Shown piece by piece: positions 7,653 through 25,898 of a DNA stretch of 64,000 bases. A program made the position numbers and the translations under genes. A model generated the notes under the pieces. That model worked only from the letters and a program-made list of their open reading frames with translations. It ran no database searches and had not been told where the DNA came from. How positions within the stretch are numbered: position 1 is the stretch's first letter; each line of letters opens with the position of its first letter. This stretch comes from a virus: the IMG/VR virus record IMGVR_UViG_3300032315_001401, positions 1 to 64,000 of that record, one strand, 5' to 3'.

Positions 7653-7676
7653 AAAAAGAGACCTTAAAAGGGTCTC
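7653..7676 (-). terminator. Intrinsic terminator after psbA
   Basis: GAGACC/GGTCTC stem followed by a U-run. Confidence 0.8.
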
Positions 7677-7687
7677 TCCTTATTATA

Positions 7688-8770
7688 TCACCCAATGGTT
7701 GGAGCAGTCAAAGCAACAGGAGTTGCTTCAATGGATGCTAAATCCAATGGAAAGTTATGTGCGTTCCGTTCGTGTTGAACTTCAATCCCCAAATTTGCCC
7801 TATTGAGCATATCTGCCCAAGTAGGAATTGGACGACCTTGATGGTCAAGAATTGATTCATTAAAATTTAGACCGTTCAAGTTAAAAGATGAAACTGCAAT
7901 ACCCATAGCAGCACACCAAATACCAAATACTGGAAGTGCAGCAAGGAAAAAGTGAAGACTACGGGAGTTATTAAAGGAAGCATATTGGAAAATAAGACGA
8001 CCGAAATACCCGTGTGCAGCAACTATTGAATAAGTTTCTTCTTCCTGTCCAAACTTATATCCATAATTTTGAGATACTTGTTCGGTAGTTTCACGAACAA
8101 TAGAAGAAGTCACGAGAGAACCGTGCATTGCCGATGCCAATGCACCACCAAAAACACCCGCAACACCTAACATATGAAACGGATTCATAAGAATATTGTG
8201 TTCAGCAGAAAATACAAGCATATAATTAAAGGTTCCAGAAATACCAAGAGGCATTCCATCACTAAAACTTCCTTGACCAAAAGGATAAATCAGGAATACA
8301 GCAGTTGCAGCAACCGCAGGAGCACTATAAGCAACTGCAATCCAAGGTCTCATACCCAAACGGTATGAAAGTTCCCATTCTCGACCAAGATAACACCAGA
8401 CACCAATCAAAAAGTGAAATACCACTGCTTGATATGCCCAACCATTATAAAGTGCTTCATCAATAGAAGCAGCATCCCAAAGATTATAGAGATGCAAACC
8501 AATAGCATTAGAAGAAGGAACAACAGCACCAGAGATGATATTGTTTCCCCACATTAAAGACCCAGCAACGGGTTCTCTTATGCCATCAATATCTACAGGT
8601 GGATTTGCAATAAAAGCAATAATAAAAACTGAAGTAGCAACGAGAAGGCAAGGAATCATCAGAACACCAAACCAACCAACATAAAGACGGTTATTGGTTG
8701 AAGTAACCCACTGGCAGAATTGTTCCCAGAGGTTTTCGCCAGAACGGCGTGTAGCGATTGTAGCAGTCAT
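7688..8770 (-). CDS. psbA: Photosystem II D1 protein, divergent (360 aa)
   Basis: [57 protein letters not shown]; real start is MTATIATRR at 8770, not the 8842 track start. Confidence 0.97.
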
Positions 8771-8789
8771 TTTTTCGTTAAAGGGTAAG

Positions 8790-8897
8790 TATAAGTCCAG
8801 GGGGAACTGAACAATTACAGTATATCCCACAACACCCTCCATTGTGGGTATGAGAGACTGTGTTTTACCTCCCCATAGGTCTCGGTTAGGTAGAGGA
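8790..8897 (-). ncRNA. Structured psbA 5' UTR, likely PhotoRC-II-type RNA motif
   Basis: GAGAC...GTCTC and CCCACA...TGTGGG helices in a long leader before psbA; resembles from memory the motif described upstream of cyanophage psbA; no covariance search run. Confidence 0.65.
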
Positions 8898-8942: not shown

Positions 8943-8971
8943 ATTATAGCATTGTCAGGAAATCCTGTCAA
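8943..8971 (-). promoter_or_regulatory. Sigma70 promoter for psbA
   Basis: TTGACA-N17-TATAAT, with a late-type ATAAATA just downstream. Confidence 0.9.
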
Positions 8972-9219: not shown

Positions 9220-9339
9220 TCACCATACTCCAGGAATTACTTGCCCAGTGGTGAGATATGCGCCAACAGCAGCGACGAATCCAATCATCGCAAGTCTTCC
9301 ATTCAGACGCTCTGCTGCTTCAGTAAAGATTTTGTCCAT
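9220..9339 (-). CDS. hli: High-light-inducible protein (39 aa)
   Basis: Manual translation MDKIFTEAAERLNGRLAMIGFVAAVGAYLTTGQVIPGVW; ExxNGRxAMxG motif; AGGAG RBS. Confidence 0.92.
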   Translation of the reverse strand: MDKIFTEAAERLNGRLAMIGFVAAVGAYLTTGQVIPGVW

Positions 9340-9349
9340 GTTTTTCTCC

Positions 9350-9436
9350 TTAATAAGTTTCGGAAAGTTGATTAACAGCATGTGCAAGAAGCACAAAGAA
9401 AGTAATGCTTGTAAGAGTAAAAATTACTTCAGTCAT
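9350..9436 (-). CDS. 28-aa membrane peptide between the hli genes
   Basis: MTEVIFTLTSITFFVLLAHAVNQLSETY; start overlaps the upstream stop (TGATG). Confidence 0.55.
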   Translation of the reverse strand: MTEVIFTLTSITFFVLLAHAVNQLSETY

Positions 9437-9630
9437 CAGAAGATACCGAAGAAGAACTTACCCGTTGCTGCATAGGAAATAAATCCAGCAACAATTCCCA
9501 TCATTGCCCAGCGCCCATTGTACTTTTCCTTTATTTGATTGGGAGTATCCATCCCATAATTTTCATAATACATTTGAGGTTCTTTGGCAAACATATTCTG
9601 CTGCCCACGCTCATTGGTTGTAACCGTCAT
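9436..9630 (-). CDS. hli: High-light-inducible protein
   Basis: EKYNGRWAMMG...TGKFFFGIF. Confidence 0.9.
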   Translation of the reverse strand: MTVTTNERGQQNMFAKEPQMYYENYGMDTPNQIKEKYNGRWAMMGIVAGFISYAATGKFFFGIF

Positions 9631-9691: not shown

Positions 9692-10486
9692 CTATTTGCC
9701 TTCAAAACCCGGTGGTAGTGTTCCAAAATAAGGATCATAATCAAAAATAGGATTCCAATCACTCACATTGGTAGCATCAACCTTCCAAAAATTCCACAGA
9801 CCTTCATAACTTGACTTATGAAATACATCAACATGCTCATCATGAATAGAAGATCCCAATTCAATCTTATAAAGAAACAAAGGAATTGCAAAGGTATTGC
9901 CAGAATTATAAATCAAATCATCGGCAACTGCACGCGGTTTGACTCCATTATCCAACTTATACTTATCTCCACGCACATGGAGATCTATAAGTTTTTGTGC
10001 ATGATGGCGAGTAATCAAATAGCAAGCAGTTGAGAAGTCATTGACAAACCTACGGTGTAGTTTTACATGAACCTGTGCCGGATTAATAATTGCAAGTTGA
10101 ACTACATCATAATCATAAGGAACTTTGCAGAAGAAGTCTTTCCAGGCAAAAGGCCAATATGTTACTGTAGAAATATCACAATCATCCTCCATGATAAGAG
10201 CACAAGGCGAATCTGAAGTCTCTAGGAAGTGCTTCAGTGCCTTTAGATGCGATGTTGTACAACCTACCTCACCAGAAGACATCATATCAGGATAGCGCCC
10301 TTTAAGAATGTCTCCAAGGTCTCTACCATCTCTTCCATCATAAGCAGAGATACGAGTATAATCTTCAATTTCCCAATACTTAAACTGACCTTCCATATAT
10401 TGTGCTCTTTCTGGTTGTTCATCCAGATTGAGATAATAGATGGGAGGAAGTCCTTTAAGTTTATATACCGCTTTGTTTTTATCCAT
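9692..10486 (-). CDS. Glycosyltransferase family 25
   Basis: IYYLNLD...ER, GEVGCTTSH, ALIMEDD, ACYLITR. Confidence 0.9.
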   Translation of the reverse strand: MDKNKAVYKLKGLPPIYYLNLDEQPERAQYMEGQFKYWEIEDYTRISAYDGRDGRDLGDILKGRYPDMMSSGEVGCTTSHLKALKHFLETSDSPCALIMEDDCDISTVTYWPFAWKDFFCKVPYDYDVVQLAIINPAQVHVKLHRRFVNDFSTACYLITRHHAQKLIDLHVRGDKYKLDNGVKPRAVADDLIYNSGNTFAIPLFLYKIELGSSIHDEHVDVFHKSSYEGLWNFWKVDATNVSDWNPIFDYDPYFGTLPPGFEGK

Positions 10487-11318
10487 GATTATAACACTTA
10501 TATTGATTAAGATATTCTTGAGAGTGATAATATTGTTTCAATTTTTGTTTATCTAAACTCTGCAGATATTCCCATAATTGATTATTTTTTTCAATATATG
10601 GATTTGCAAACCAAGAATTTTGACCACGATAATGCTCCAAATGATAAACAAATTCATCCTCCAATCTACCCACTTTATAACCTAATGTAGTAAATCTAAA
10701 ATATCTTTCTTTATCTTCTGGAGACCAAGAAATAAAATTTTCATTTTCCATTCCACCTTCAATATAAGAAGATGTTTTGAAAAATTGCACATGTCCAAAT
10801 TGTGAGATGTATGGTTTTTCTTTTTTTTCTAAAATTGAAAAATCAAAATTATTATTTAAAAAATAAGTTACCAATTCATCATTTGCATAAATTTGTTTTT
10901 GATAATTACCAAAACCGTATGGATATACTATATCATAATTTTCATTGAGAATCATTTTAACTGATTTTAAATATGCGTCAACTTTTAATAAAACATCAGA
11001 ATCATAATTAACAACAACTTTTGTATCAACTTGATTCAGCATTTCATTAATTATTTTCATTCTATGAAATTCTGAAAGATCAGATTTCTCAAATGAATAT
11101 GATAAATTTTCCAGTTCATCATCTTCCAAAAATTTTTCAATTTGAGAAAGAACATACTTTTTAAAAAACTGTTCCCTATCTACTTCTTTTACAATAATTT
11201 TAGTGTTAAATTGTTTTAATAAGAAACATAAAACCGTTATAAGATTTCTCGTTCTATCATCAGAATCAATTCTGACTGGAATAATAAAAGTACAATCCGA
11301 TAAATCTACTTTATTCAT
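10479..11318 (-). CDS. GT-A glycosyltransferase (GT2/GT7-like)
   Basis: FIIPVR, VNYDSD, GGMENENFISWSPEDKERYFR. Confidence 0.8.
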   Translation of the reverse strand: MNKVDLSDCTFIIPVRIDSDDRTRNLITVLCFLLKQFNTKIIVKEVDREQFFKKYVLSQIEKFLEDDELENLSYSFEKSDLSEFHRMKIINEMLNQVDTKVVVNYDSDVLLKVDAYLKSVKMILNENYDIVYPYGFGNYQKQIYANDELVTYFLNNNFDFSILEKKEKPYISQFGHVQFFKTSSYIEGGMENENFISWSPEDKERYFRFTTLGYKVGRLEDEFVYHLEHYRGQNSWFANPYIEKNNQLWEYLQSLDKQKLKQYYHSQEYLNQYKCYNHG

Positions 11319-12115
11319 TATATTTTAATCCAATCATCCAAATAAAGATCTTGAGTTTGATTTTTAGCAGTATTTCCTTCAGTACCAAACCATTGTGATG
11401 GTGCAATTACTTTTTTAGATTTTGCCAACCAAGCACCCCACCAAGAAAATGATGAATTAGCAATAATATGATAATTACACATACTCATAAGACATAAATC
11501 AACTGCACCATCATTTGATTCTGATATCATAAATCTATCCGATTCAAATAAAGGTTGGTATTCACACCACCGAATATCGTCAGAAAAAATCATAACTGGA
11601 ATATTAGAATCAAAATAAGTTAATGCCTTTTCATAATAAGAAATGTCACATAGTGGGTGATTAGTAGAATTAGAAACATAATCAGATCTTCTAACATGCA
11701 AAGCAATAATTTCATCAAAATGAAAATTATTAACACATGGTTCTAAAATATAATCTTTAAATTTAAAATCTTTTCTTATACTTTCTTCAATGTGTTTAAA
11801 ATATTTTTCACTTTGATAATAACCATGTAGATTAACATTATCTGGACAATTTTCTACATATTCTGAATCATAATGAAATTGTTTTTCAGGGTAAAATTCA
11901 GCGGGCAAAAATCCAACATTTTCTACATTACCCAACTCAAATATATCAAAAAGATGATTATCTTTCCAAATATCGCCATAGTTTGTTTTAGGTATGCAAA
12001 ACTCATAGTTTTTTGTAGCAGCAATACCTCTCAATGAAGCATACTGAAACATTTGATTTGCTAACCTACCGTATTGCCCAAGATAATTAAATCCAATCAT
12101 TTTTATTAAGAACAA
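11318..12115 (-). CDS. Alpha-1,2-fucosyltransferase-like, GT11
   Basis: GRLANQMFQYA, GYYQSEKYF, LHVRRSDY, IANSSFSWWGAWL. Confidence 0.92.
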   Translation of the reverse strand: MFLIKMIGFNYLGQYGRLANQMFQYASLRGIAATKNYEFCIPKTNYGDIWKDNHLFDIFELGNVENVGFLPAEFYPEKQFHYDSEYVENCPDNVNLHGYYQSEKYFKHIEESIRKDFKFKDYILEPCVNNFHFDEIIALHVRRSDYVSNSTNHPLCDISYYEKALTYFDSNIPVMIFSDDIRWCEYQPLFESDRFMISESNDGAVDLCLMSMCNYHIIANSSFSWWGAWLAKSKKVIAPSQWFGTEGNTAKNQTQDLYLDDWIKI

Positions 12116-12900
12116 AGAGTAATTTTTTTATCAGATGGAGAGTGAATCATTCTTGCAAAAAAATCAAATTCTTGATCAGGATAATCTCCTGGTTTTGCAA
12201 AAGATGGATGTAAAATATGGAAATCATCAAATCTTTCTATCCTATACTTATTTAAGTGACTTTCATCGTGTGCTTTAGCTAGAATATTATTTTCTAAATC
12301 TTTTTTAATTCTAGTATCCAACTCATCAATTAATTCAAAAACATCAGGAACTTTACCGCCCCAAATGCATCCTTGAAGATATACATCATCTCTTTCTTCT
12401 TCTTCCTTTACACAAGACAAAGATCTTTCATTTCTTTCAAATGGTAATGTTCCAATAAATTTACTCCAATGAGTACTAAATGTTGGATGTTGGACACCAA
12501 AAAATGATTTCTCATCATTAAAAAATTCTTGATATGTAATCACTTGATTGCAACAATACATATCAGCATCAAAATATACATACCAATCATAATTTTTTAA
12601 CTGTTCTTCAATTTTTTTAATTTCACCAAATCTCCTCAAACCACCAATACTATTGTACATCAAATTATACCAATTATCAGAGGAATAATCTGATGTTGTA
12701 ATCTCAACATCCTCAGATGCTTTTATAATTTCAATATTATCTGGGATATCATCACCCAGATCCCCATCAGTAAATACAAAAAAATCTTTATCACATTCTG
12801 GAATAAAATACTCCATTAATGTTTCATAATACTTTGGAAAGAATTTAAGATAATTTCCAGTACCAATAAAGTTAATAGCAATTTTTTTAGTCATGATCAA
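12106..12900 (-). CDS. Glycosyltransferase family 6
   Basis: FIGTGNY, YFDAD, YLQGCIWGG, AHDESHLNKY. Confidence 0.85.
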   Translation of the reverse strand: MIMTKKIAINFIGTGNYLKFFPKYYETLMEYFIPECDKDFFVFTDGDLGDDIPDNIEIIKASEDVEITTSDYSSDNWYNLMYNSIGGLRRFGEIKKIEEQLKNYDWYVYFDADMYCCNQVITYQEFFNDEKSFFGVQHPTFSTHWSKFIGTLPFERNERSLSCVKEEEERDDVYLQGCIWGGKVPDVFELIDELDTRIKKDLENNILAKAHDESHLNKYRIERFDDFHILHPSFAKPGDYPDQEFDFFARMIHSPSDKKITLCS

Positions 12901-13844
12901 CTATTTTTAATAATTGTTTCTACAGATGGAATATAGTATTTTTTCAAAACTTCTTTCCATTCAAACTGTTTTGAATATTCTAAAATTTCTTTTCTATGTT
13001 TAATAGAATATTCTCGATTTTCGATTATTTTTTCTTCAACGTAACTAATATCTGAAATTTTATTTTCAGGAATGATTGTAATAAATTCTTTAGATGCATC
13101 CAAATTAGCTCTTCCCCATTCACAAACAACTACCCCAAGTCCAGCAGCAAGTGCTTCCATACAAACAAGAGGATGTGCTTCACCATCAGATAAAAGAACT
13201 AAATTGCCATAATTAGTTAGATCATTATATAATGTATTCTTATCCCATTCTCCAAGATAATTTTTAGAAGTATTAAATCTATTATCTGCAATATTTCCAG
13301 CATACCACAAACTTTCAATACTTTGAAAAGAGTATTGTCTCTTTCTATAATCAATTTTAGCAAGATAAATTGATCTATCCAAATACTGAGGATTATCACT
13401 AACTCTAAACTGAGATAGGTTTACGCCATTTGGAGTTAAAAATAAATTATTTTCAGGAAGATTCAAAAGAACTTTATACATGTTTTGAATGCCTTCAGAC
13501 AAACAAAAAGTATTTGGTTTGAGGTTGGCAAACTCATTAGCGATGTATGCGTAACCACCAAAAAGTTCTGGTCTTTCTAGATATCCATAATGACTCGTAA
13601 TTGCCTTTGGATATTGAATATATGGATAAAGATTAATAAACTCATCATAATGAATATGAACAAAGTCTGGATTAAAAGAATTAATCTCTCTAATAATTTG
13701 ATTATAATCTTTAGTATTTGTAATTTGAACTTGATGTCCTAAAGACTCCAAAGAAATTTTAGTATCCCATATAAGGATTTCAACTGCACCCCACCCTAAT
13801 GGGGGAATTGGCATAATACCAGGACCAATTAGTGTAATTTTCAT
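12897..13844 (-). CDS. GT-B glycosyltransferase (GT4-like)
   Basis: PIPPLGWGAVE; EAHPLVCMEALAAGLGVV. Confidence 0.85.
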   Translation of the reverse strand: MKITLIGPGIMPIPPLGWGAVEILIWDTKISLESLGHQVQITNTKDYNQIIREINSFNPDFVHIHYDEFINLYPYIQYPKAITSHYGYLERPELFGGYAYIANEFANLKPNTFCLSEGIQNMYKVLLNLPENNLFLTPNGVNLSQFRVSDNPQYLDRSIYLAKIDYRKRQYSFQSIESLWYAGNIADNRFNTSKNYLGEWDKNTLYNDLTNYGNLVLLSDGEAHPLVCMEALAAGLGVVVCEWGRANLDASKEFITIIPENKISDISYVEEKIIENREYSIKHRKEILEYSKQFEWKEVLKKYYIPSVETIIKNS

Positions 13845-14758
13845 AGGTAATTTTTAATCCAGTCTTCCAATTTAACTTTAGGTTCCCATCCAAAAGTTTT
13901 TTTCGTTTTTTGAATATTTGCAAGAGTAACTCTAGACTCACCTGGTCTAGGGGGAAGATTAATTTTATTTTTTGATATCATTCCTGCAATTTGATTGATG
14001 GAATGATTTGTTCCTGTGCCAACATTAAATACTTGACCAAAAAATTCACTATCAATTGAAGAGGTTGCGGCAAGAACATTGGCACTTACTACATCAGAAA
14101 CGTGAGTAAAATCTCTACGTTGGTTTCCATCGCCAACGATCGTTAGTGGTTCTCCTGATGCACGTTGACGAAGGAAAATACCAATTACAGGAGCATATTG
14201 TCCACGTAAGGGTTGACGTTCCCCATAGACGTTAAAATACCTAAAGCAAATCGTGGGAAGACCATAAAGTCTTGTATACATCTTACAGAGTTTTTCACCA
14301 TTTACTTTGGAAACGGAATATGGATTGAGACAATCATCTGGTTGCGTCTCAACATTTGGGGACTCATTCATTCCATATGCAGAAGAGGTAGAAGAGTACA
14401 TCACTCTCCCCACTCCTGCTTCACGAGCACACTGCAGTACGGTACAAGTCCCCACAGAGTTAATACTCACTGCCTGAATGGGATTTTCAATAGCAGGTTG
14501 AATACGTGCCTCTGCAGCAATGTGAAAAACAAAATCTACGCCATCATAAAGAGGTCGTGTTTTTTCATAATCACGAATATCGTACTTATAATTTTGTGCT
14601 TCACGATTCCAATAAAATTGATCATGAACATCAGAGTATTCATTATCAATTACAATAACTTCATGCCCGATTTGAATGAGATGATCTACAAGATTTGATC
14701 CAATAAACCCAGCACCACCAGTAACTAAACTTTTCATACCATTTCTTGGAATAAACAA
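13841..14758 (-). CDS. NAD-dependent nucleotide-sugar epimerase/dehydratase
   Basis: VTGGAGFIGS, SSTSS, YSVSK, FRYFNVYG; start probably the MKSLVT codon. Confidence 0.93.
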   Translation of the reverse strand: MFIPRNGMKSLVTGGAGFIGSNLVDHLIQIGHEVIVIDNEYSDVHDQFYWNREAQNYKYDIRDYEKTRPLYDGVDFVFHIAAEARIQPAIENPIQAVSINSVGTCTVLQCAREAGVGRVMYSSTSSAYGMNESPNVETQPDDCLNPYSVSKVNGEKLCKMYTRLYGLPTICFRYFNVYGERQPLRGQYAPVIGIFLRQRASGEPLTIVGDGNQRRDFTHVSDVVSANVLAATSSIDSEFFGQVFNVGTGTNHSINQIAGMISKNKINLPPRPGESRVTLANIQKTKKTFGWEPKVKLEDWIKNYL

Positions 14759-15558
14759 AGATGATTTTTACCATTAACTCGATGAAACCTAGTAAAAAGA
14801 TTCTCTTTTGTTTTGCAGAGATATCCAATTGCTATCTGTTCATTATTTACATTTTTATTTTGCAACATGCTTTGCATAAGATTGTCTAGTTCAATTGTGA
14901 TATTTTCAATGGCAACTTTATTACCACCAAACATACTACCACAAATGAATGAGCGATTATCCCACAAATACTTTTCGGTTAAAGTTTTGGAGTTTACAAG
15001 GTCAGAATAACACTCAGTATTATACTGTATCAGCATTGTATTGTCAATTGCTGCCAACTCTTTAAGCGCATCTTCACTAGGATATTCATTTGAAATGTCA
15101 CAATCATATAAAAATCTGCTTGCTCCAGCGTCTAACCAAAAGAAAAATTTTGACTTAAATGGATTAATTTCTGTTGCTTTTTTTAACCATTTAAACTTAG
15201 AATATTGAATGACAGAATACATTGAATTTTTACATTCTACTCTATTCAGATCTCCCATATTTTCCTTATAAAAATCGGAATCTAAAACATCTTGAATCGG
15301 TTGTTTTAGGTAGTAATATGGAATATTTTCTAATGATTCTACTACAATTTCCGTTGGTAAATCTTTTCTTACTTCCCTTATAGTATCAACCAAATCTTCT
15401 TCTGTAAAAATAATAAAAGGACATTTAACATTTAGTGTTTTGCAGAACCATTCAACATAATCTTCCCAACTTCTTCCATCTTCTCTTTGCAATTCTTTGA
15501 CATTATAAAGAGAAGTAACAATTACAAAATCAGTGTTCATTGTGATACAGATAAACAA
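14734..15558 (-). CDS. HtrL/YibB-like protein
   Basis: IVTSLY, SKFKWLKKA...NPF...FFWLDAG, GSMFGG, NNEQI. Confidence 0.75.
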   Translation of the reverse strand: MFICITMNTDFVIVTSLYNVKELQREDGRSWEDYVEWFCKTLNVKCPFIIFTEEDLVDTIREVRKDLPTEIVVESLENIPYYYLKQPIQDVLDSDFYKENMGDLNRVECKNSMYSVIQYSKFKWLKKATEINPFKSKFFFWLDAGASRFLYDCDISNEYPSEDALKELAAIDNTMLIQYNTECYSDLVNSKTLTEKYLWDNRSFICGSMFGGNKVAIENITIELDNLMQSMLQNKNVNNEQIAIGYLCKTKENLFTRFHRVNGKNHLCLFQEMV

Positions 15559-16102
15559 TGTCGTCGTGTCTATTTTTATTTATTCTCAAATCCACAACTT
15601 CAAAAACATCAAGAAATTCGGGATTACTCCATCCTGGATTTGAATCTACATCTTCAATAATATAATAACCACCTTTTTTAAGTTTTGATTTAAGAATATT
15701 CCAGGTTTTTAAGGTTAGTCCTGGATCATGTGAGGCATCATCAATAATTAAATCAAATTCTGGACAGTTTTCGAAAATGCTTGGATTATCTTGAGATCCT
15801 TCTTCGAGAAAAATAAATCTTTCTTTTTCATGATCAGTAAGTTGAAGACGAGAATAATCTTTATCAAACCCATAAATTTTAGTTGATGATGAGAAAATAT
15901 CCCTCCACATTCTCAGACTGTATCCAGAAGAAACACCAACCTCCAATATACAAAGACCTTTATTGTCTTTGATCTTTTCAAAAACTTCAGGATAAAATAA
16001 TTCATATGAATGATCCGATCCCTTATCACTACATCCAGTCCATGGAGTAGAACTATAATGCTCAATAATCTCTTTTGCTTTTTGTTTAAATGATTTTGCC
16101 AT
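15530..16102 (-). CDS. Class I SAM-dependent (sugar O-)methyltransferase
   Basis: ILEVGVSSGYS, YGFD, DLIIDDASH, GGYYIIED. Confidence 0.88.
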   Translation of the reverse strand: MAKSFKQKAKEIIEHYSSTPWTGCSDKGSDHSYELFYPEVFEKIKDNKGLCILEVGVSSGYSLRMWRDIFSSSTKIYGFDKDYSRLQLTDHEKERFIFLEEGSQDNPSIFENCPEFDLIIDDASHDPGLTLKTWNILKSKLKKGGYYIIEDVDSNPGWSNPEFLDVFEVVDLRINKNRHDDIVYLYHNEH

Positions 16103-16103
16103 T

Positions 16104-16979
16104 TTAATTCATATTTTTAAAGTGTTCAAAATTAACATGCTCAACCCAATTTGGCCACATATTAATTTCTAAAGGTTTGCAAGATTCGTAATCAAAATGT
16201 GTAATATAAAATTTTGAATCAATTTTATATTTTTTGTACCAATCTGTTGCTTGTTTATATATAATTGCCCCAAAATCCACCAAATTAATATTTAAATTTT
16301 GTTTGGTACAAACATCGATGCAATGATCTCTAACATGTATTATTCCATTTTCATAACTGCTTGGAATAAAATTATACCATCCTGATAGAAATTTTTCCAT
16401 AGATTCAGTTTTTCCAAGAAAAAACCAATCACATGGATTGTTTGGAAATTCTCCAGCATACAAATGCCCACCACCCATCGAACTTTGAAAGTATAAAGTA
16501 TTATCCTCTAATTGTATTTGAGACAATATAGTTTTAAGTGGTTTAGTTAAAATAATATCTGGTCTTGTTTTTACGACAACATCAATATCATGTTCTTTAA
16601 CTTTTAAAAATGATTGATAATTTGAATAAGTTTGACTTAGTAAACCATATAACACTATGGGAGTAATTACTTTATAGTGTTCTATACTTTCATCTTTCCA
16701 AACATCAAAATTAAATTTTTTAAAGAATGAGATATCAAAGTCTTTATGAGGTTCAACAATAAAATCAGTTACATTATATTTTTCTATAAATTCTTTGTCT
16801 AAATTTTCACCATTAAAAGTATCAGTAAACCAAAGTTTATACATTTTTCCATTATAAGATTTGTCCCACCATAGATGAGAACAAACCTTATCATTCTTTT
16901 CTACTTGATAATTTGAAAAGTAATCGAGGGTTGTTTGATAAAAAATTGGTTGTCCAGAAAACAAATATGCACAATTCAT
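16104..16979 (-). CDS. Glycan-locus hypothetical protein, GT-like
   Basis: FSGQP, VVVKTRPDI, DWFFLG; paralogous pattern to 21538-22281. Confidence 0.6.
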   Translation of the reverse strand: MNCAYLFSGQPIFYQTTLDYFSNYQVEKNDKVCSHLWWDKSYNGKMYKLWFTDTFNGENLDKEFIEKYNVTDFIVEPHKDFDISFFKKFNFDVWKDESIEHYKVITPIVLYGLLSQTYSNYQSFLKVKEHDIDVVVKTRPDIILTKPLKTILSQIQLEDNTLYFQSSMGGGHLYAGEFPNNPCDWFFLGKTESMEKFLSGWYNFIPSSYENGIIHVRDHCIDVCTKQNLNINLVDFGAIIYKQATDWYKKYKIDSKFYITHFDYESCKPLEINMWPNWVEHVNFEHFKNMN

Positions 16980-17650
16980 TTTTCAAAAATAAACTTTGCC
17001 ACTTGTAATGTATATTCACCAACATGCATAGTAAAAGGATCTGGTTCAGAATAATCACAAGCACCCAATAATGTCAATCCAGAAGATTCAATCAATTTCA
17101 CAACTAATTCTGGTTTAATAAATTCACCAAACTCATTCTTAATATCCACATCGGAAACAATAATAAATTTTCCACCTGGTTTAAGAACTCTATAAATTTG
17201 TTCTGAAATATCTTTCCATCCTTGATTGTTAATCTTATCAGAGTGTGCTCTGTTAAAATGCGTTACTGCACAAGAATCTACAAAATAATCAACAGTATTA
17301 TCATCCATTTCTTTAACTTCTGCCAAAGCATCATTCAAAATCATTCTAACTAAACTTCCAGAAAAAGAATGACCCACATCACTAATATCAATTCCAGTAA
17401 CATCATGTCCCAATGAAGAAACAATATGAGGTAATGGTGAACTAGAACACCCAAGATCAACGACGATCTTATTTTCCTCATCTAATTCTTGAAAATAATT
17501 TGCGATGAAAGTCCATTTCATCAAAGCATCATCGTTAGTCCAAGTTATATGAGGAAACCTAGTTTGATATTCATATTGTTCTACTTTTTCTTTACAAAAA
17601 AGTAGATCATCATTGTTTAGCAATTTACTATCAAAATTCATTTCAAACAA
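16976..17650 (-). CDS. Class I SAM-dependent methyltransferase
   Basis: VVDLGC, VTGID, YRVLKPGGKFI. Confidence 0.88.
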   Translation of the reverse strand: MFEMNFDSKLLNNDDLLFCKEKVEQYEYQTRFPHITWTNDDALMKWTFIANYFQELDEENKIVVDLGCSSSPLPHIVSSLGHDVTGIDISDVGHSFSGSLVRMILNDALAEVKEMDDNTVDYFVDSCAVTHFNRAHSDKINNQGWKDISEQIYRVLKPGGKFIIVSDVDIKNEFGEFIKPELVVKLIESSGLTLLGACDYSEPDPFTMHVGEYTLQVAKFIFEK

Positions 17651-18326
17651 CCTCTTTCCAATTTGCAGAGTTACTAATTACTTCCATATCAGTAATTAAA
17701 CCAATGCCTACGATATCTTCATGATACTCTGATGTAACATCAGTATAAGTTGGAACATATAATTTTGCACCATTCAAAGCCCCCACAACTTCTCCAGGTC
17801 CACAAATTTTTCCGCCACACACATCATACTTCACTTGAGGATTAAATGGATTTTGAAAATCATCAATAAAAATTGCAAAATTTTTAAGTTTAGTTGTTAC
17901 AAAACTAACCTCATCAAACAAAGGCCAAGAGTACATTCTCTGACCGTTTTCTTCCCATTCTCCATGCGCATCAAACCAAAATACACACTTTTTATTTTTT
18001 AGATCAGGTTCTTTTCCTAGAACATAATAGAGAATTTCGGGTGATGACATTTTTTGCATGTCAACATTATCCAGTTCTTTTAATATATCGTAAGAAACTG
18101 AAAAACGATAATCATCGATTTCGCAAGTATATACTTTTTTATCTGAAAAATTGTCTGCAATGAAATAAGAACTTTCTGCATAAGCAGTTCCAGTTTCAAT
18201 AAACAAATCAGAATTTTTCATGTAATCATATATTGTGTCAATAATATAAGTATCACCATGAAAAGGATTTCCATGAGTCCATCCAGCTGGATCTTTACTA
18301 AAATTTGCTATTTTGTACTTTGCCAT
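17643..18326 (-). CDS. Methyltransferase-like protein
   Basis: FIETGT, YTCEID, FWFDAH, IFIDD. Confidence 0.7.
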   Translation of the reverse strand: MAKYKIANFSKDPAGWTHGNPFHGDTYIIDTIYDYMKNSDLFIETGTAYAESSYFIADNFSDKKVYTCEIDDYRFSVSYDILKELDNVDMQKMSSPEILYYVLGKEPDLKNKKCVFWFDAHGEWEENGQRMYSWPLFDEVSFVTTKLKNFAIFIDDFQNPFNPQVKYDVCGGKICGPGEVVGALNGAKLYVPTYTDVTSEYHEDIVGIGLITDMEVISNSANWKEVV

Positions 18327-19054
18327 TTTCCTCCGTAGTTACCTGAATAAAATTCTCTATGTTGATGTAGCAGTGGATGCCCAGAATATCTCCAATTTGG
18401 ATTTCTTATACACTCCGTTTGATCTGGATTTTCTTCATAAGTATACCCAAATAAAGAAAATAAAAATGCTAACAAATAATCATAACAAATCATTCGTGGA
18501 TCCAATTCCAATCCACCAGACAACTTATCAAGATTATTTGTAAGTTGTTCATACATTCCATAAAATGAAGATGTTTTCATAACACCTCCTGCAGGACCCC
18601 ATGTTCCGTTATTTTTACCACCATTCATTATAACATATCTTTGCACACTTTCTGGCATTATGTTTACTGTTGGACCAGCAAGATCAGATTTGATTGGATT
18701 TAATTTTCCTCGAACTAAAACATCAGGTTCCATTAAAACCATATACTCAGTATTGCAATAATCACATCCATTTTTAAGTCTTCTCAAAAATTCCATCGAT
18801 ATTCCCATGAAAAGATCAATGTTTCCAGAATTTTCTCTAACGTATTGATCAACATCTCTAGCAATACCAACTACTTCTGTAGTTTCTTTTATTGTTTCAA
18901 TATTTTCAAAATCTTCTTTTAGATATGAAAAATCTAATCCATTGTCCGATACAAGATAAATTGGATTATTTGGATAAAATTCTCTAAATTTAGATAAAGA
19001 ATATTCAATTGCAGACTGCTCTTTATAACAGATATAAAATACACCTAGATCCAT
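18308..19054 (-). CDS. Putative GT-A glycosyltransferase
   Basis: IYLVSDNG, VLMEPDVLVRG, GPAGGV; island context. Confidence 0.6.
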   Translation of the reverse strand: MDLGVFYICYKEQSAIEYSLSKFREFYPNNPIYLVSDNGLDFSYLKEDFENIETIKETTEVVGIARDVDQYVRENSGNIDLFMGISMEFLRRLKNGCDYCNTEYMVLMEPDVLVRGKLNPIKSDLAGPTVNIMPESVQRYVIMNGGKNNGTWGPAGGVMKTSSFYGMYEQLTNNLDKLSGGLELDPRMICYDYLLAFLFSLFGYTYEENPDQTECIRNPNWRYSGHPLLHQHREFYSGNYGGKWQSTK

Positions 19055-19055
19055 A

Positions 19056-20546
19056 TTACTTAATAATTAAAAGAATGTTATTGTCAATTTTGTTATTTGG
19101 ATTTGGCAACTTTAGAAGTTTCATGTAATCTAAAGAATACTCACTTTCTAAACTTGAAAGAATATTCTCAAATGAATTGAATGTAGAAATTGTTAGATCC
19201 TCAATAATGAAGATGCCACCTTTTTTAAGTTTGTGAATTGATTCTTTTAAAAAATTCAAATTAGATATAAACTCATGTTTACCATCATCCATAATCACAT
19301 CAAAATGTAAATCTTTCAATTTATCATCATTCCACATATTTTGAATTGACGATACATCATCTTGATTGCAGTAAAAACATTCCACATCAAGATCTTGAAC
19401 CCTTAAAAAAGTTTCCTTATCAACATCGGCAGCAAAAATTTTAGCTTTTGAAAAATACTCTCTCCAACTATGAACTGATGCTCCATGATAAATTCCTACT
19501 TCCAAAAAATTAATTTCATCTTCTCGTAGATGTTGAAAGAAATAGTTGTAAAGAGGAGAATAATTATGCCAATCAGAACTTTTATCAGATCCGTGTTTTT
19601 TAAGTATCTTACACAAATCAGTTTCTTCAGATAATTTGACCGGATTCAAAAATGATATAATATCATTTTCAGTAATTTCAACTGATAAATTTTCCATATA
19701 AGTTAGTAACTCAGTATTTTTAAGTTCACTTATTCCAGTGAAATGATAGTTGTCGTTATTTACACCGCTCCAAAGAAATGGTCTATTTTCGTATCTTAAA
19801 ACTCTATATAAAAAAGAAAATCTTGGAAATGTTCTGGGTAACTTCCCATCCAATATGTATTTATAGACTAAACAATTGAGAACATCTTGGTCTCCACAAG
19901 ACCACTGAAATTCTGGATCTGGATTGTAATTGGGACTTTTGGCAATTAGATTTTTATTTTTACATAACTCAAGATACTCTGAAATAAATTTTCTACCAAA
20001 TTCATTGTTTCTTACTAACACTCTTGCTGCGTTAATAAGATGAGAATTTTTTACTATACGTTTTTCAGATTCAGTAAAGAAATAATCTAAAGTATATTCT
20101 TTTACACAAGACTTCACATAACAACCTTCCCGTTCCATCTGAAACCAAATATCTGTACCATTTTCAAATAATAAATTTTTTGACAATGATTCGATATTTT
20201 CCCAATCACTTTGCCAATACTGTTGATTTTTAATGAAGTTCCCATCATGATACAATAATAAGGAATCTTCTGGAATATTTTTTAATGTGTAATCAATTAA
20301 AAAAGGTTTAAAATCAAAGTATCCAAAATGATGAACATTTGCATTTTGATCTAATGGTTCATCATAACTATTGCAGATGTCTTCACTATTTGGAAGATCC
20401 TTCAAAGTTTTTTTGTTATAAAGAAAAATTTGATCAAAATATGGAGTCAAATTTTTTTGTATTTCTTCAGCAACTGAAGATAAGGAAAAACCTTCATCAT
20501 AAGGTTCTCCTTCAGAATAAAATGATAAAAAATACATAACTATCAA
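19056..20546 (-). CDS. Two-domain protein: GT-like N-terminus fused to a SAM methyltransferase
   Basis: N-half FDFKPFLI, LLYHDG, DQDVLN; C-half HGSDK..WHNY, LEVGI, DVIMDDGKH, GGIFIIED. Confidence 0.7.
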   Translation of the reverse strand: MIVMYFLSFYSEGEPYDEGFSLSSVAEEIQKNLTPYFDQIFLYNKKTLKDLPNSEDICNSYDEPLDQNANVHHFGYFDFKPFLIDYTLKNIPEDSLLLYHDGNFIKNQQYWQSDWENIESLSKNLLFENGTDIWFQMEREGCYVKSCVKEYTLDYFFTESEKRIVKNSHLINAARVLVRNNEFGRKFISEYLELCKNKNLIAKSPNYNPDPEFQWSCGDQDVLNCLVYKYILDGKLPRTFPRFSFLYRVLRYENRPFLWSGVNNDNYHFTGISELKNTELLTYMENLSVEITENDIISFLNPVKLSEETDLCKILKKHGSDKSSDWHNYSPLYNYFFQHLREDEINFLEVGIYHGASVHSWREYFSKAKIFAADVDKETFLRVQDLDVECFYCNQDDVSSIQNMWNDDKLKDLHFDVIMDDGKHEFISNLNFLKESIHKLKKGGIFIIEDLTISTFNSFENILSSLESEYSLDYMKLLKLPNPNNKIDNNILLIIK

Positions 20547-21541
20547 TAATTTACTACTTCAAGTAATTCTTTGACTCTATTTACATAAGTGTGATTATCT
20601 TTAACAAATAACATTTGAGATTTAATTAAGTCATAATTTTCTCTTTCTTTTTCGGCATCAAAAAAGAGTTGATAAGTGTCTTCATTATAAATGATATTAC
20701 CATCAAAAAATTCATAAACTGGTTTTGAATTAGTAATTCCTAGTTGACCATAACTGATATTTTTAAAATTCCTACATGGGATATACCCCCATTCTTTGAA
20801 TGCATTATGTCTAACATCTGGAGCAAGATATGACTTTTGAATTACAATCTTTTGATCTTCAAATGATTGGGGACTAATCCATGGACAATTATATTTGAAT
20901 TCAATTCCATTTTCCTCACATGCCCGAATAAAAGGATTCAGATAAATTAAATTATCATACTCTGGCGGTGCTGGTCTACAATCTTTTGGACCACCTTGAC
21001 CACCGCCAATTGTTCCTGCAAAGAAAACATAATTTTCTTTAGAAATGAATCGATCTTCAATATTAATTTGATCGGGTAATAAATCAGTTGCCCAAGTTGT
21101 ATATAAGCAATCATAATCTGATCCTTTTTCAAAGTAACAACCTGACCCAATTTTAGTTGCTTTAGTTCTATTTAGAGTGTAATTATAATTTTTATCAGTC
21201 CACTTATTTGCATTGTATCTTACATCAATCAATCTACCAACTTTACCAAGATAAGCAGCGGCACCAGGGTTACCTTCTACACGATTATCTTTATTGCCAA
21301 TATAATGTACTGCATAAGTGGAATTACTAAACAGTGGAATATTTGGATTTCCAATTACTGCCCATTGTTCCGTAAAAATTAATGCGTCATTAAACAATTG
21401 TGGATCAAAGTTATCTGTTCCATCAAGCCAATATGTTTCATATCCAAGTGCTTTAAAAGCATTAAAATACCCAGCATGGATATATGAATGTGTATGAGAA
21501 TATAATTTATATCCCCATATAATAACCCTCTTATGTTTCAA
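20543..21541 (-). CDS. Putative GT-B glycosyltransferase
   Basis: HTHSYIH, YIPCRNFKNISYG, HTYVNR C-terminus. Confidence 0.6.
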   Translation of the reverse strand: MKHKRVIIWGYKLYSHTHSYIHAGYFNAFKALGYETYWLDGTDNFDPQLFNDALIFTEQWAVIGNPNIPLFSNSTYAVHYIGNKDNRVEGNPGAAAYLGKVGRLIDVRYNANKWTDKNYNYTLNRTKATKIGSGCYFEKGSDYDCLYTTWATDLLPDQINIEDRFISKENYVFFAGTIGGGQGGPKDCRPAPPEYDNLIYLNPFIRACEENGIEFKYNCPWISPQSFEDQKIVIQKSYLAPDVRHNAFKEWGYIPCRNFKNISYGQLGITNSKPVYEFFDGNIIYNEDTYQLFFDAEKERENYDLIKSQMLFVKDNHTYVNRVKELLEVVNY

Positions 21542-22281
21542 AATGATACTCCCAAATCAATTGATTTTGTTTTAATTTTATTGTTTTTTAGATGATCTCT
21601 AAGTAACAGTTCAACACACCAAATATTTTCTTTAGACATTACTTGGTGATAAACTGGTTCAAAATGATAATAAAGTGTGCTCCAAACATTCATGATTTTG
21701 GGAGATCCCATTCCAAACCAATCACTAATCATATCCAATGGTTGATTTAGATTTTGATGATATAAGACATTTGAATCAAACTCAAAATTTGAAAAGTCCA
21801 ATCTAATCGAAGGACTTACATCATATCTCATAGTAATGACTACATCATACTTTACATTATTCTCAATAGAATAATTTTCTCTGAGAAAATTAACCATCAT
21901 CTTACTGTAACATTGACTGTGACATCTGTCAACAGTATATTTCTCAAAAAACTCTATTCCATTTGGATCATTTAAACCATAATCAAAACACCTTTTAATA
22001 TTTTCCTCTGTAACTTTTATATTAGAATTTTCCCAATGTTTTGGTTTTTCAAAACAAAAACCTTTTGGATTATAAACATCTAAAAGTTTTTTATCAATAT
22101 CAATTTCAGAAGATCTTCCCCAATGACCAGGTGTTCTTTTACCAAAATCTAAATTAGCAGAATCATACCAACAATGTAAAAAAACATCTACATCGTTGCC
22201 ATTTATGGTAGTCTCTTTAACTCTTTGAGAAGTTTGTATAGCATTCCTTGGTTGACCAGACAAACATAATGCGATTTTCAT
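21538..22281 (-). CDS. Glycan-locus hypothetical protein
   Basis: MKIALCLSGQPR, DVFLHCW, YDVVITMRYD, SDWF. Confidence 0.6.
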   Translation of the reverse strand: MKIALCLSGQPRNAIQTSQRVKETTINGNDVDVFLHCWYDSANLDFGKRTPGHWGRSSEIDIDKKLLDVYNPKGFCFEKPKHWENSNIKVTEENIKRCFDYGLNDPNGIEFFEKYTVDRCHSQCYSKMMVNFLRENYSIENNVKYDVVITMRYDVSPSIRLDFSNFEFDSNVLYHQNLNQPLDMISDWFGMGSPKIMNVWSTLYYHFEPVYHQVMSKENIWCVELLLRDHLKNNKIKTKSIDLGVSF

Positions 22282-23267
22282 AAAGAAATTTCCTTCACAA
22301 CTTTTTTAATTAAAGATTCAATGCTTGTATTAGGTTCCCACCCTAAAAGTTCTTTCGCTTTTTCATAGGATCCTTTAGAATATTTATTGGTTTCTTTAGC
22401 AACAATTTTTTTATCTAAAGGATATTCTCCAGTAAATAATTCCGGATAGTTGTCCCAAAGTTTTGAAGATTCTCTATAAACTGCTTTAATATCCGTATTA
22501 AAAACTTCGCAAATACAATTTGCAATTTGATTTACGGAAACAAGAGTCCCGGTACAAACATTAAAAGTATCATCGGGTTTTTTATCCAAACATATATCAA
22601 TCAATTTAACCACATCATCAACATGAATATAATCTCTCTTTTGTTCGCCATCAGAATGCAATATTGGAGAATTGTTGTTTAGAATTTCTCTGACAATGTA
22701 ATTAATAAGTGGTGGATGTTTTCTATGAATATCTTGTCTTGGACCAAATACATTAAAAAATCTAAGAGTACTAATAGGCATATTATAATTAATTCGATAT
22801 GATTCGCATACCTCTTCTGCCATCTTCTTAGATAAAGAGTACCATAATCTTGGATTTATTTCTAAATCTTCAGTAAATACTTTCTCTTTATTATTTTCAT
22901 AAACAGCACTGGTGCTGGCAAAAATTACATGCGGAACTTTCCACTTTCTTGCACACTCAAGAATGTTCATCGTTCCGGAGACATTCACATTGATTGTATC
23001 GACAGCGTTAGTTTCACAATCAGGAAGAGCAGTGATAGCGGCAAGATGAATAATACAGTCATATTCATCCTTAAGTAGTTCTACAATATTTAAATTGGAA
23101 ATACTTAGATTATAAAACTTTCCAAAAGTTTCACCATTAATCGTTAGATTTTCTAGATACCCATTTCTTAAATTATCAATAAGTGTAAGCGTATGACCTT
23201 TTTTAAAGAGATAATATCCTAAAGTAGATCCTATTCCACCAGCAGCACCAGTTAAAAGTATTTTCAA
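22278..23267 (-). CDS. NAD-dependent nucleotide-sugar epimerase/dehydratase
   Basis: LTGAAGGIGS, FASTS, YSLSK, LRFFNVFG. Confidence 0.92.
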   Translation of the reverse strand: MKILLTGAAGGIGSTLGYYLFKKGHTLTLIDNLRNGYLENLTINGETFGKFYNLSISNLNIVELLKDEYDCIIHLAAITALPDCETNAVDTINVNVSGTMNILECARKWKVPHVIFASTSAVYENNKEKVFTEDLEINPRLWYSLSKKMAEEVCESYRINYNMPISTLRFFNVFGPRQDIHRKHPPLINYIVREILNNNSPILHSDGEQKRDYIHVDDVVKLIDICLDKKPDDTFNVCTGTLVSVNQIANCICEVFNTDIKAVYRESSKLWDNYPELFTGEYPLDKKIVAKETNKYSKGSYEKAKELLGWEPNTSIESLIKKVVKEISL

Positions 23268-24322
23268 TGTAAAAACTCCTTTAAATTGTCACTATTTCTT
23301 GGCAAGTTAATCGCTTCACATGACGGATATGGATTACTTTTTGCAAAATCATTGATAATAACTCGCTTACAATGTGGCAAACCCATAATCAATTCATCAT
23401 ATAAAATCTTCTTGTCTTCTAATTCAGAAACTGTTATGTCTCTCATATTTTTAGGTCTACTTGTTGTCAAAACTATTTTGACTTTACCTGCTTGATGCAA
23501 TGAGTTTAAATAGTCAATATTATCCTGCAAAGCATCTGCATTACCAATATATGGTGGGAAATGAACTGAAGAGTTTGTGACTAGAGTACCATCAATATCA
23601 ACGAACAAACATTTGTATTGGGACTTGTATTTGTTCCAAGCATTAAGTGTTCCCCAATCTTTAAAATTTGATGTTTTAGTTCCATAAAATGTTGAACCAG
23701 ATAACATCATCTCAAAAATAATATAACTAATATAACACTCACCTTCCATATCTTGCAGTTTTTCATAAGTAGCACAAAACTCTCTTGTATCTGTAAATCC
23801 ATAACCACCGCTGGAAAAGGTAGAACTAACAACATGTTTTTCAACAATATTAGTTATCATTTGATTAATATCAAGCTCTATGTAACTTTTTGTACGAGCA
23901 TTAATATCATCCATATCATTTAAATCAAAATATGCAACTTGATTTTTTTCATTATTTAATTCACATTCATAATATCCATCAGAATCTTTGATGAATATAA
24001 ACCCCGACAATTGACTATTCTTCAAAAAATTATAAACGGTTTCAGATTGTGATTTAGTTTGTTCTGGTAACAAAACTATTTTTGACTTTTCATATAATCC
24101 AAGATTATTAAGTTCTGAAGTAAAACCTTTCATGAACTCATATTTATCTTCATGTTCTTGCAAACAAATAAAATAAATATGATCAAAAAAATTTAAGTTA
24201 AGACCAAGAATAGATTCTGTTACCATAAACCTATTAGTCATTGGATGTGTAAGCATCCACTTGGGTCTCATATTTGGGAAACGGCTAGACCGTCCCGCCA
24301 TAGGAATTATTAAAGTTCGCAT
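23264..24322 (-). CDS. Nucleotidyltransferase fused to a HAD-type phosphatase
   Basis: IIPMAGRSSRF...PKW; C-terminal FVDIDGTL and LTTSR. Confidence 0.85.
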   Translation of the reverse strand: MRTLIIPMAGRSSRFPNMRPKWMLTHPMTNRFMVTESILGLNLNFFDHIYFICLQEHEDKYEFMKGFTSELNNLGLYEKSKIVLLPEQTKSQSETVYNFLKNSQLSGFIFIKDSDGYYECELNNEKNQVAYFDLNDMDDINARTKSYIELDINQMITNIVEKHVVSSTFSSGGYGFTDTREFCATYEKLQDMEGECYISYIIFEMMLSGSTFYGTKTSNFKDWGTLNAWNKYKSQYKCLFVDIDGTLVTNSSVHFPPYIGNADALQDNIDYLNSLHQAGKVKIVLTTSRPKNMRDITVSELEDKKILYDELIMGLPHCKRVIINDFAKSNPYPSCEAINLPRNSDNLKEFLH

Positions 24323-25112
24323 ATAACTTTGATGATTTTACCATTATATCAAGTATACTTCTTTGATGGGAAAAAGTCAAGTAGGGTTCAATTCTAAGAC
24401 TATTCAGTGCTTCCAAAATATCAAACTCATCAGTATCAATAAACTTAGAGTATCTACAATAAAGTTGATTCCAGATATGTTTATAAATTTGCTCTATCCT
24501 ATTTGATTGTATGTTTTGAGTTTTGATGCTCCAGAGATGATAAAGATCTTGTTTCAATTTAACAAGATCGGAAATAAAACTATCAACATAACAATCAAGA
24601 AAATCAATAAAAAATAATCTATTTTTATGAAAAATAATATTATTAAAGGTTAAATCTCCATGACAAAAAGTTTTAGGAACATAGACATTTTGCTTTTTAA
24701 TTAAAAGTTCAATGTATTCCAAATAATTTTCATAGCAAGTTTTATTTTTTAAAACTTTAATTTTTTCATCAATATTTGATTGAACATTAATCAATCGATA
24801 ATTTAAAATAAGAGAATCAAAATATTCAAATAAAGTATCAATAACAAATTCTATGTCCTTAATAGAAGATGTGGAAAAAAATTCCACAAAAGATTTTCCA
24901 GGAATGTATTCCATATCAAAATACTCATCCCGAATATTATGAACTTTGGGGGTATCTACATTCTTTAAAATTCTACGAGAAAATAAAACTTGTTTATTAA
25001 CCTGCAAAGAAAGTCTTGAGTTATAACTAATTGATGAAGAATACTTTCTAAGTACTCTACTATCAATTAATTCAAGTTTACATCCAGATAACCCTACAGA
25101 AAAATCTAACAT
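24285..25112 (-). CDS. APH/choline-kinase-like phosphotransferase
   Basis: GLSG, CHGDLTFNNII, FIDFLD. Confidence 0.85.
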   Translation of the reverse strand: MLDFSVGLSGCKLELIDSRVLRKYSSSISYNSRLSLQVNKQVLFSRRILKNVDTPKVHNIRDEYFDMEYIPGKSFVEFFSTSSIKDIEFVIDTLFEYFDSLILNYRLINVQSNIDEKIKVLKNKTCYENYLEYIELLIKKQNVYVPKTFCHGDLTFNNIIFHKNRLFFIDFLDCYVDSFISDLVKLKQDLYHLWSIKTQNIQSNRIEQIYKHIWNQLYCRYSKFIDTDEFDILEALNSLRIEPYLTFSHQRSILDIMVKSSKLYANFNNSYGGTV

Positions 25113-25894: not shown

Positions 25895-25898
25895 TAGA

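Follow-up and report, generated by a model that had tools for sequence, protein, structure and literature searches.

A coherent virus-only lineage of the photosystem II protein D1 that keeps the functional residues checked and departs from ordinary phage D1s at conserved packing positions

The 64,000-nucleotide stretch analysed here (positions 1 to 64,000 of the virus record IMGVR_UViG_3300032315_001401, hereafter the window) is contained in a 188-kb IMG/VR viral record with an estimated completeness of 84%, and encodes a psbA gene for D1 of photosystem II (PSII), which is among the most conserved proteins known. An earlier reading of the DNA letters (the original prediction) had described its product as a highly divergent D1 that keeps all catalytic ligands. 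Our analysis supports the conclusion that the window D1 belongs to a coherent virus-only lineage that is under purifying selection and lies beyond ordinary phage D1 variation. The same signature recurs in 10 viral contigs and one metagenome protein cluster, with D1s that match the window D1 at 91-98% identity and share 24-35 of its 35 rare residues; we refer to these as the group. The gene itself is located as follows:

7688..8770, minus strand: psbA coding sequence for a standard-type D1 (Photo_RC match of 291 bits, full-length structure alignment)

This coding sequence comprises 360 codons plus a stop and lies within a longer open reading frame (ORF; 7688..8842, minus strand), with the ATG at 8770 being the start homologous to that of other D1s, and it contains no intron. 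The product matches 53 distinct solved D1 sequences over its full length in a phmmer search; the best of the full-length alignments to solved structures is that to Synechocystis D1:2 (PDB 6wj6/7n8o, E 2e-199), and the Pfam Photo_RC domain (PF00124) covers its whole core with a score far above the cut-off of 27 bits. It is a D1 of the standard type with Glu at position 130. Residues are given throughout in standard D1 numbering with the Synechocystis protein as reference; one extra residue near position 9 makes the window residue number the standard number plus one. A low-confidence AlphaFold2 model (mean predicted local distance difference test score, pLDDT, of 56) has five transmembrane helices at window residues 32-55, 111-137, 143-161, 197-216 and 269-298, and a C-terminal extension of 16 residues follows D342-L343-A344, the predicted CtpA processing site. 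A second, canonical psbA had been suggested as something to seek elsewhere in the genome; neither a second psbA nor a psbD was found in the 188-kb record (84% complete), in which the window psbA is the sole Photo_RC gene.

All 45 functional residues that we checked are kept in the window D1, and also in the close relatives that cover the positions. The alignment confirms the 15 catalytic and cofactor residues that the original prediction had listed as intact (D61, Y161, D170, E189, H190, H198, H215, H252, S264, H272, H332, E333, H337, D342 and A344), along with the Glu at 130. Further residues kept in the window and all close relatives are D59, R64, E65, N87, H118, Y126, Y147, Q165, S169, T179, N181, M183, V185, F186, M214, L218, E244, Y246, F255, F265, S268, L271, F274, N296, N298, E329, R334, N338 and L343. 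Thus, the ligands of the Mn4CaO5 cluster (D170, E189, H332, E333, D342 and the A344 C-terminus) are present together with the second-sphere residues D61, H337 and R334, as are YZ (Y161) with H190 and N298, the P680 ligand H198, the ChlD1 residue T179 and the ChlZD1 ligand H118. On the acceptor side the non-heme iron ligands H215 and H272, the QB head-group residues H215, S264, F265, H252 and F255, the bicarbonate residues Y246 and E244, and the pheophytin residues Y126, E/Q130 and Y147 are likewise retained. Near QB only F211, listed as a contact of the QB tail (PMC4030317), and its neighbor S209 differ. The proposal of altered QB chemistry consequently fares poorly: the head-group residues are all kept, and the case for a change is weak because F211A is polymorphic within the group and found in other viral D1s. 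N247S and W278L are also polymorphic within the group.

To place the substitutions we used a panel of 241 D1s, drawn from 80 viral contigs, 80 cellular genomes and about 80 metagenome proteins, and counted residue frequencies in the 227 comparison D1s (viral, cellular and metagenomic) outside the window's group. Nineteen changes had been listed at positions held to be near-invariant. All of them are present and 15 are rare, the remaining four, Y73W (30/227), F93L (56/227), E231V (41/227) and F300L (17/227), being ordinary variants. The window residue is found in none of the 227 sequences for A55N, P95N, W105A, G110W, P111A, L114A and Q304E, and in 2-5 of them for Q187S, H195N, F211A, N247S, W278L, F285C, M293S and M331Q. 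The departures extend beyond that list, to I96L, L102I, T292V, A294S, V281F, A43V, T46S, C47V and F124W. Counting only sites with at least 95% conservation in the background of the sequence concerned, the window D1 has 15 departures and its group 14-19, as against a panel median of 3 and a 95th percentile of 11, and this sets the lineage outside ordinary phage D1 variation, within which the original prediction had allowed that it might fall. The replacements sit at second-shell and packing positions, not at ligands. A comparable burden is seen in just one other viral lineage of the panel: L076 (IMGVR_UViG_3300007735_000001), together with L049 and P0021, constitutes a second, independent divergent viral D1 lineage with 19 conserved-site changes at other positions (e.g. 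F33S, V58T, L106A and G128M). We also considered resistance to oxidation as a theme of the replacements, but in its numbers of Trp, Met, His, Tyr and Cys the window D1 is within the range of other D1s, which leaves this idea unsupported.

The replacements can be assigned to the following segments of the gene:

8426..8641, minus strand: N module, residues 43-114 (A43V, T46S, C47V, A55N, P95N, I96L, E98D, L102I, W105A, G110W, P111A, L114A), in the lumenal half of helix A, the lumenal a-b helix and the start of helix B

8183..8209, minus strand: C module part 1 (Q187S, H195N), at the end of the lumenal c-d helix and the start of helix D

7886..7936, minus strand: C module part 2, residues 278-294 in helix E (W278L, V281F, F285C, T286A, L288M, V290I, S291A, T292V, M293S, A294S)

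8027..8143, minus strand: patch variable within the group, residues 209-247 (S209A, F211A, L223I, T230Q, E231V, N247S), immediately upstream of H215|G216, where some members have an intron

The N-module residues 40, 43, 46, 47, 93, 95, 96 and 102 presumably line ChlZD1 or CarD1, whereas we take residues 187, 286 and 290 to line PD1 and the C-module residues (Q187S, H195N and 285-294) to lie near P680 and YZ. Within the C module H195N had been likened to a motif of D2, and the change does recreate a D2-like NPFH. The N module contains what we regard as the most informative combination. W105 is present in 269 and G110 in 270 of 282 D1s of all types, both being kept even in ChlF, rogue, D1' and far-red D1; A105, W110 and A114 occur in exactly the same 12 of the 282, namely the group, P0015 and the mosaic L022, with A111 found in these 12 and in P0059. 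The window D1 thus lacks the conserved-but-not-defining Trp105, having Ala at 105 and Trp at 110, and retains the ChlZD1 ligand H118. D1-W105 has been described as strictly conserved and as linking a beta-ring of CarD1 to ChlZD1 (Cardona and colleagues, PMC6492235). We infer that W105A/G110W/P111A/L114A represent a coupled and compensated repacking of this peripheral pigment pocket, in which the Trp would have shifted by five positions.

The two modules have separate distributions. Beyond the group the W105A/G110W module is found only in P0015 and L022, and the combination of 187/195 with 285-294 only in the P0046 group. L022 has the N module only, its nucleotide identity to the window being 86-93% over codons 31-105 and 61-85% (mostly about 70%) elsewhere in the gene; P0046 has the C module only (S187, N195, C285, A291, V292, S293 and S294) with a canonical N module. 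Within the group DNA identity profiles are patchy. The N-module signature codons are identical in 10 of 10 group members, which suggests that this segment has spread recently, whereas the C-module signature is kept in L006 and L009 despite third codon positions that are only about 50% identical. These patterns indicate that D1 modules move between phage psbA genes by recombination. A search of 401 Cyanobiaceae genomes recovered no cellular donor of the N module, its peptide reaching at most 73% identity (to canonical sequence) there, and the C-module peptide was matched at E 1e-17 in one of the 401, by a D1'-like atypical protein (L316, G057:C10:25281-28409) that is 75% identical overall to the window D1. 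L316 has a 17-residue stretch in common with the window's close relatives, in which the window has E for the first Q (Q304E). The cellular D1 of Synechococcus sp. UW140 (P0114) shares C285, A291, S293 and H309. With no cellular donor in the genomes searched, a host origin of the modules was rejected.

The lineage is both abundant and constrained. A cluster at 90% identity gathers 263 distinct sequences with the window D1 from JGI and ENA, while the best cellular D1 is 83% identical and the best D1 of a cultured phage 82.5% (S-CREM1); at that best match no cultured phage with the window's D1 allele was found. The shared rare residues accumulate stepwise, from 5-11 in the outer relatives through 17 in P0015 to 24-35 in the group. 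The Nei-Gojobori ratio of non-synonymous to synonymous divergence (dN/dS) has a median of 0.109 in the group at a dS of about 0.5, compared to 0.072 in other viral and 0.078 in cellular D1s at similar depth; on account of these values the constraint is strong, if slightly weaker than usual, and the ratio is far from the value of about 1 that would have signaled decay. Compared with four other D1 groups, the group has 45-67 fixed non-synonymous differences, as opposed to 4-31 in control group pairs; the McDonald-Kreitman-type test was significant, with neutrality indices of 0.07-0.20 here and 0.14-0.39 in the controls. Since synonymous saturation brings all these indices below 1, only the relative excess of fixed replacements was used. 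This excess fits a speeding-up of protein evolution along the lineage's stem and is no proof of positive selection.

To understand the provenance of the lineage we included it in two phylogenetic analyses rooted on ChlF, one with FastTree (161 sequences) and the other with IQ-TREE (69 sequences, fast search with the Shimodaira-Hasegawa-like approximate likelihood ratio test, SH-aLRT), both of which took in the rogue D1, D1' and far-red D1 from the Chlorogloeopsis, Calothrix and Synechocystis genomes. In both trees the group lies deep inside standard D1, in its picocyanobacterial/phage part. It is recovered with a support of 0.988 (FastTree SH-like) and 88.8 (IQ-TREE SH-aLRT), and with its sister P0015 at 0.948 and 96.8, respectively. 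The P0046 group and the L076/L049 group are placed next to this assemblage, and these divergent viral D1s come together with 0.969 (SH-like) and 94.4 (aLRT). The root-to-tip length of the group is 0.93 against a median of 0.66, and the window D1 branches far from the atypical D1s L190-L192, L181, L188/L189 and P0125-P0136. Accordingly, of the claim that this is a distinct viral D1 class, the coherence and virus-only makeup of the lineage stand, but not its depth, as it nests in standard D1 among other divergent viral D1s; the window lineage is a fast-evolving viral sublineage and not a deep class. The idea of a deep class had been prompted by W124, C285, D98 and L278, which are shared with rogue D1, and was rejected on the ChlF-rooted trees. 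Because the group nests inside standard D1, the residues that it has in common with rogue D1 are convergent or exchanged.

Comparison with the known kinds of D1 leads to the same placement. With the standard (G4) D1 found in cyanobacteria and in cultured cyanophages (Synechocystis D1:2; S-CREM1, S-RIP2 and S-SSM5) the window D1 shares length, fold family, topology, cofactor ligands and C-terminal extension, and it has the Glu130 of the high-light D1:2 and most phage D1s; it differs by about 15 replacements at sites at least 95% conserved, including W105A/G110W/P111A/L114A, A55N, Q187S, H195N and T292V/M293S/A294S. The atypical D1s (ChlF/super-rogue G1, rogue/sentinel G2, D1' G3 and far-red) coincide with it at some positions, including V123/W124/L127 and C285/A286, and N195 occurs in one rogue D1. 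However, these forms have lost or altered ligands of the Mn cluster or branch outside standard D1, and yet keep W105 and G110, whereas the window D1 retains all the ligands, falls inside standard D1 and is devoid of W105 and G110. The other divergent viral D1s (L076; L049/P0021; P0046/P0028; P0015) have subsets of the window's rare residues, each with a change set of its own.

The psbA gene is accompanied in the window by the following features:

8943..8971, minus strand: promoter-like TTGACA-17-TATAAT matching the sigma-70 consensus at 12/12 positions, with TG before the -10 element, about 170 nt upstream of the start codon

8771..8936, minus strand: long 5' leader of about 165 nt, fold energy z = -0.38 against shuffled sequences

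7657..7677, no strand assigned: palindromic GC-rich hairpin, terminator-like, directly after the psbA stop codon

6951..7634, minus strand: ORF of 227 amino acids with an N-terminal helix-turn-helix (the only Pfam match), occupying the slot of differing endonuclease-like genes in relatives

9220-9396 and 9436-9630, minus strand: two small Hlip-like genes with weak Chloroa_b-bind matches, upstream of psbA, in the same arrangement as in S-SRM01

Of the regulatory elements that the original prediction had described, the perfect promoter is borne out in every consensus position and in its TG extension, whereas the leader folds no better than shuffled sequence and cannot be called structured. Another promoter-like element, TTGACT-18-TATAAT (11/12; 7682-7711, minus strand), overlaps the last psbA codons and faces the downstream endonuclease-like ORF. 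Beside hli-psbA there is a long co-oriented run of glycosyltransferase/methyltransferase-like ORFs (9692-27063) with a GC content of about 29%, below that of the rest of the window, and the same block is annotated in S-SRM01. This freshwater phage (Kyanoviridae, Serangoonvirus; PMC8557907) is the closest isolate genome: in a 20-kb test stretch 59% could be aligned to it at 82.5% nucleotide identity, and the window resembles it over nrdA/B and tail genes. Its psbA locus has the order of that in the window, namely glycosyltransferases, hli, psbA, endonuclease slot and metallophosphatase, but its D1 has the canonical residue at all of the signature positions and three introns interrupt its gene, as opposed to the intronless, divergent allele of the window. 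Using tblastn we placed the four exons of the S-SRM01 gene (L163:12379-14850; MW015081.1 207378-209850), with introns after H92, A250 and R334, of which only the first contains an endonuclease ORF; the S-SRM01 record annotates two partial D1 genes and leaves the last two exons unannotated. Contigs with the intermediate allele P0015 have the same synteny as S-SRM01. Because this synteny is common to S-SRM01, the P0015 contigs and the window, a single phage lineage carries canonical, intermediate and fully derived D1 alleles.

The group member L007 additionally encodes a psbD (L007:5759-6820) 1.5 kb downstream of its psbA, and the corresponding D2 is near-canonical and close to other viral D2s. 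Given this D2 and the absence of a psbD from the window's record (84% complete), the variant D1 would have to work with an ordinary D2. Relative to nine other viral D2s the L007 protein shows a few private changes in its last helix near the iron-ligand His (W to F, F to L), which in this one sequence might reflect co-adaptation.

Taken together, these observations make it probable that the gene specifies a working D1 in which a burst of protein evolution was followed by the purifying selection seen today. We propose that the window comes from an uncultured T4-like cyanomyovirus of a freshwater lake, a relative of Synechococcus phage S-SRM01, and encodes a catalytically competent D1 of the standard (Glu130, "high-light") type. 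The gene would probably be transcribed by the host RNA polymerase from the consensus sigma-70 promoter, and its product would probably enter host PSII by way of the normal D1 repair cycle, pairing with host D2 since the 188-kb record (84% complete) holds no psbD, with the result that PSII would be kept running during infection. In the course of the proposed burst of amino-acid replacement in this virus-only sublineage, the N module would have rebuilt the ChlZD1-CarD1 pocket, with loss of W105 and gain of Trp110 alongside P111A and L114A, and the C module would have changed residues that presumably lie near P680 and YZ. Several points weigh against this picture. The dN/dS of the group is mildly above that of other D1s, which could mean some relaxation of constraint. 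The McDonald-Kreitman-type excess is inflated by synonymous saturation, and the control indices are also below 1. Long-term maintenance is less evident for the N module than for the C module, because the DNA of the N module is nearly identical across the group, and it may be the product of a recent sweep. Finally, with an AlphaFold2 mean pLDDT of 56, the structural reading of the Trp swap draws on a single paper and on the general features of PSII structures.

A working D1 could also owe its divergence to an adaptive functional shift, with the substitutions selected for properties of PSII useful to the phage, which we consider possible though somewhat doubtful. Such properties might include photoprotection or side-path electron transfer at ChlZD1/CarD1 and the redox balance of P680/YZ (Q187S, H195N and 292-294); S209A and F211A might alter the QB tail niche or the sensitivity to inhibitors, and resistance to turnover is a further candidate. 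The large number of fixed non-synonymous differences relative to the controls, the lowest neutrality indices of all comparisons, the conservation of the changes after they arose and their stepwise gain along the lineage are consistent with it, as is their concentration in pigment and cofactor neighborhoods (W105 between CarD1 and ChlZD1, PMC6492235; F211 at the QB tail). However, the McDonald-Kreitman signal is confounded by saturation, F211A, N247S and W278L vary within the group, the content of oxidizable residues is unshifted, and the QB head-group and donor-side ligands are all unchanged. More tentative still is the specific suggestion of a virus-specific PSII variant, in which the ChlZD1-CarD1 photoprotective pair would be rebuilt and the P680/YZ environment retuned through Q187S, H195N and T292V/M293S/A294S. 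If this were true, side-path electron transfer, photodamage or turnover would not be the same in PSII with the phage D1 as in host PSII, to the benefit of the phage over the few hours that an infection lasts.

A different kind of explanation invokes selfish elements, the divergence being mainly a by-product of homing endonuclease and group I intron traffic on phage psbA, in which resistant target sites and co-converted exon tracts would spread through linkage to endonucleases and not through PSII function. Signs of such traffic abound at this locus. The S-PM2-type psbA has a group I intron and a free-standing endonuclease, F-CphI; this system resembles the present one in that psbA is targeted by introns and adjacent free-standing endonucleases, with L007 and L008 having an intron after R334, and differs in that the window copy is intronless and its neighboring ORF matches a helix-turn-helix only. 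Among the relatives group I introns are found after R334 (L007:4003-4213 and L008:4003-4214; 211-212 nt), A336 (L022:4009-4266 and cluster members) and H337 (L009:1547-1782). Their three insertion points lie within four codons, the 5' exon ends in T and the intron in G, and the cores are conserved. In a survey with the conserved intron-core pattern 8 of 80 stored loci were psbA, and the placeable introns, from few loci, all belonged to the 334-338 cluster. The members P0139, P0140, P0142 and P0151 of the 90% cluster end in the same read-through peptide after H215, indicating a further intron site at H215|G216. A different endonuclease-like ORF directly follows psbA in nearly every relative; by eye, unrelated HNH-like and GIY-YIG-like ORFs can be recognized in this slot (L004:1170-1766, L007:4379-5690, L008:4452-5901 and L193:1957-2553).

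The sequence around these sites lends the selfish-element explanation some further support. Within the group, hypervariability is seen at residues 209-213, upstream of the 215|216 site. At R334|N335 (7766-7783, minus strand, residues 330-335) the window reads CAC GAA CGG AAC against CAT GAG CGT | AAT in the intron-bearing relatives, amounting to four synonymous differences in four codons (332-335) and leaving an Arg codon that no longer ends in T. The introns after H92, A250 and R334 in S-SRM01 are also in keeping with it, as are the DNA mosaicism and the near-identical N module, which suggest gene conversion. Yet, 7 of the 35 rare residues lie within 7 codons of the verified intron sites, with 6.2 expected (p = 0.43), and adding two candidate sites gives 13 observed against 9.4 expected (p = 0.10). 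The main clusters at 105-114, 187/195 and 285-294 are away from the verified sites, and the 227-residue ORF next to the window psbA is common only to L002 and L003. Homing-site scars were therefore rejected as a general cause, there being no enrichment near verified sites, and retained as a local contributor only. Mobile elements probably drive the recombination, and do not explain the main clusters of substitutions; as the principal source of the divergence we hold them to be unlikely.

Far less probable is a non-functional product, either a dominant-negative decoy that poisons PSII assembly, as the original prediction had entertained, or a gene drifting to decay. The many changes at sites at least 95% conserved in other D1s, the loss of a Trp105 reported as strictly conserved (PMC6492235) and the slightly raised dN/dS could be read in its favor. 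But more than 10 independent contigs have an intact frame, the dN/dS ratio is about 0.11, the signature residues are themselves conserved, the lineage counts 263 cluster members and the strong promoter is kept; moreover, none of the metal, tyrosine, chlorophyll, pheophytin, iron, bicarbonate or quinone residues checked is missing, so that nothing expected to be lost in a decoy is lost. Assembly or sequencing errors or a chimeric contig, which the origin of the window in a metagenome-assembled viral record might bring to mind, can practically be discounted, as the same residues recur in independent contigs from many samples and two data sources, the codon-level variation between contigs fits real divergence and the S-SRM01 synteny is preserved on both sides of the gene.

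A working D1 under purifying selection after a burst of replacement has implications for what this protein tolerates. To our knowledge, W105, G110, Q187 and H195 have rarely or never been seen changed in nature, and selection has kept a D1 without them across many phage genomes. The lineage hence offers a natural, presumably internally compensated mutant set for probing the contributions of the ChlZD1-CarD1 link and of the residues close to P680. Practical consequences are modest pending a measurement of activity. For the phages themselves, the findings suggest that psbA evolves by module exchange in a locus crowded with introns and endonucleases, and that it can depart widely from the sequence space of host D1 and yet must fit host D2, CP43 and PsbI.

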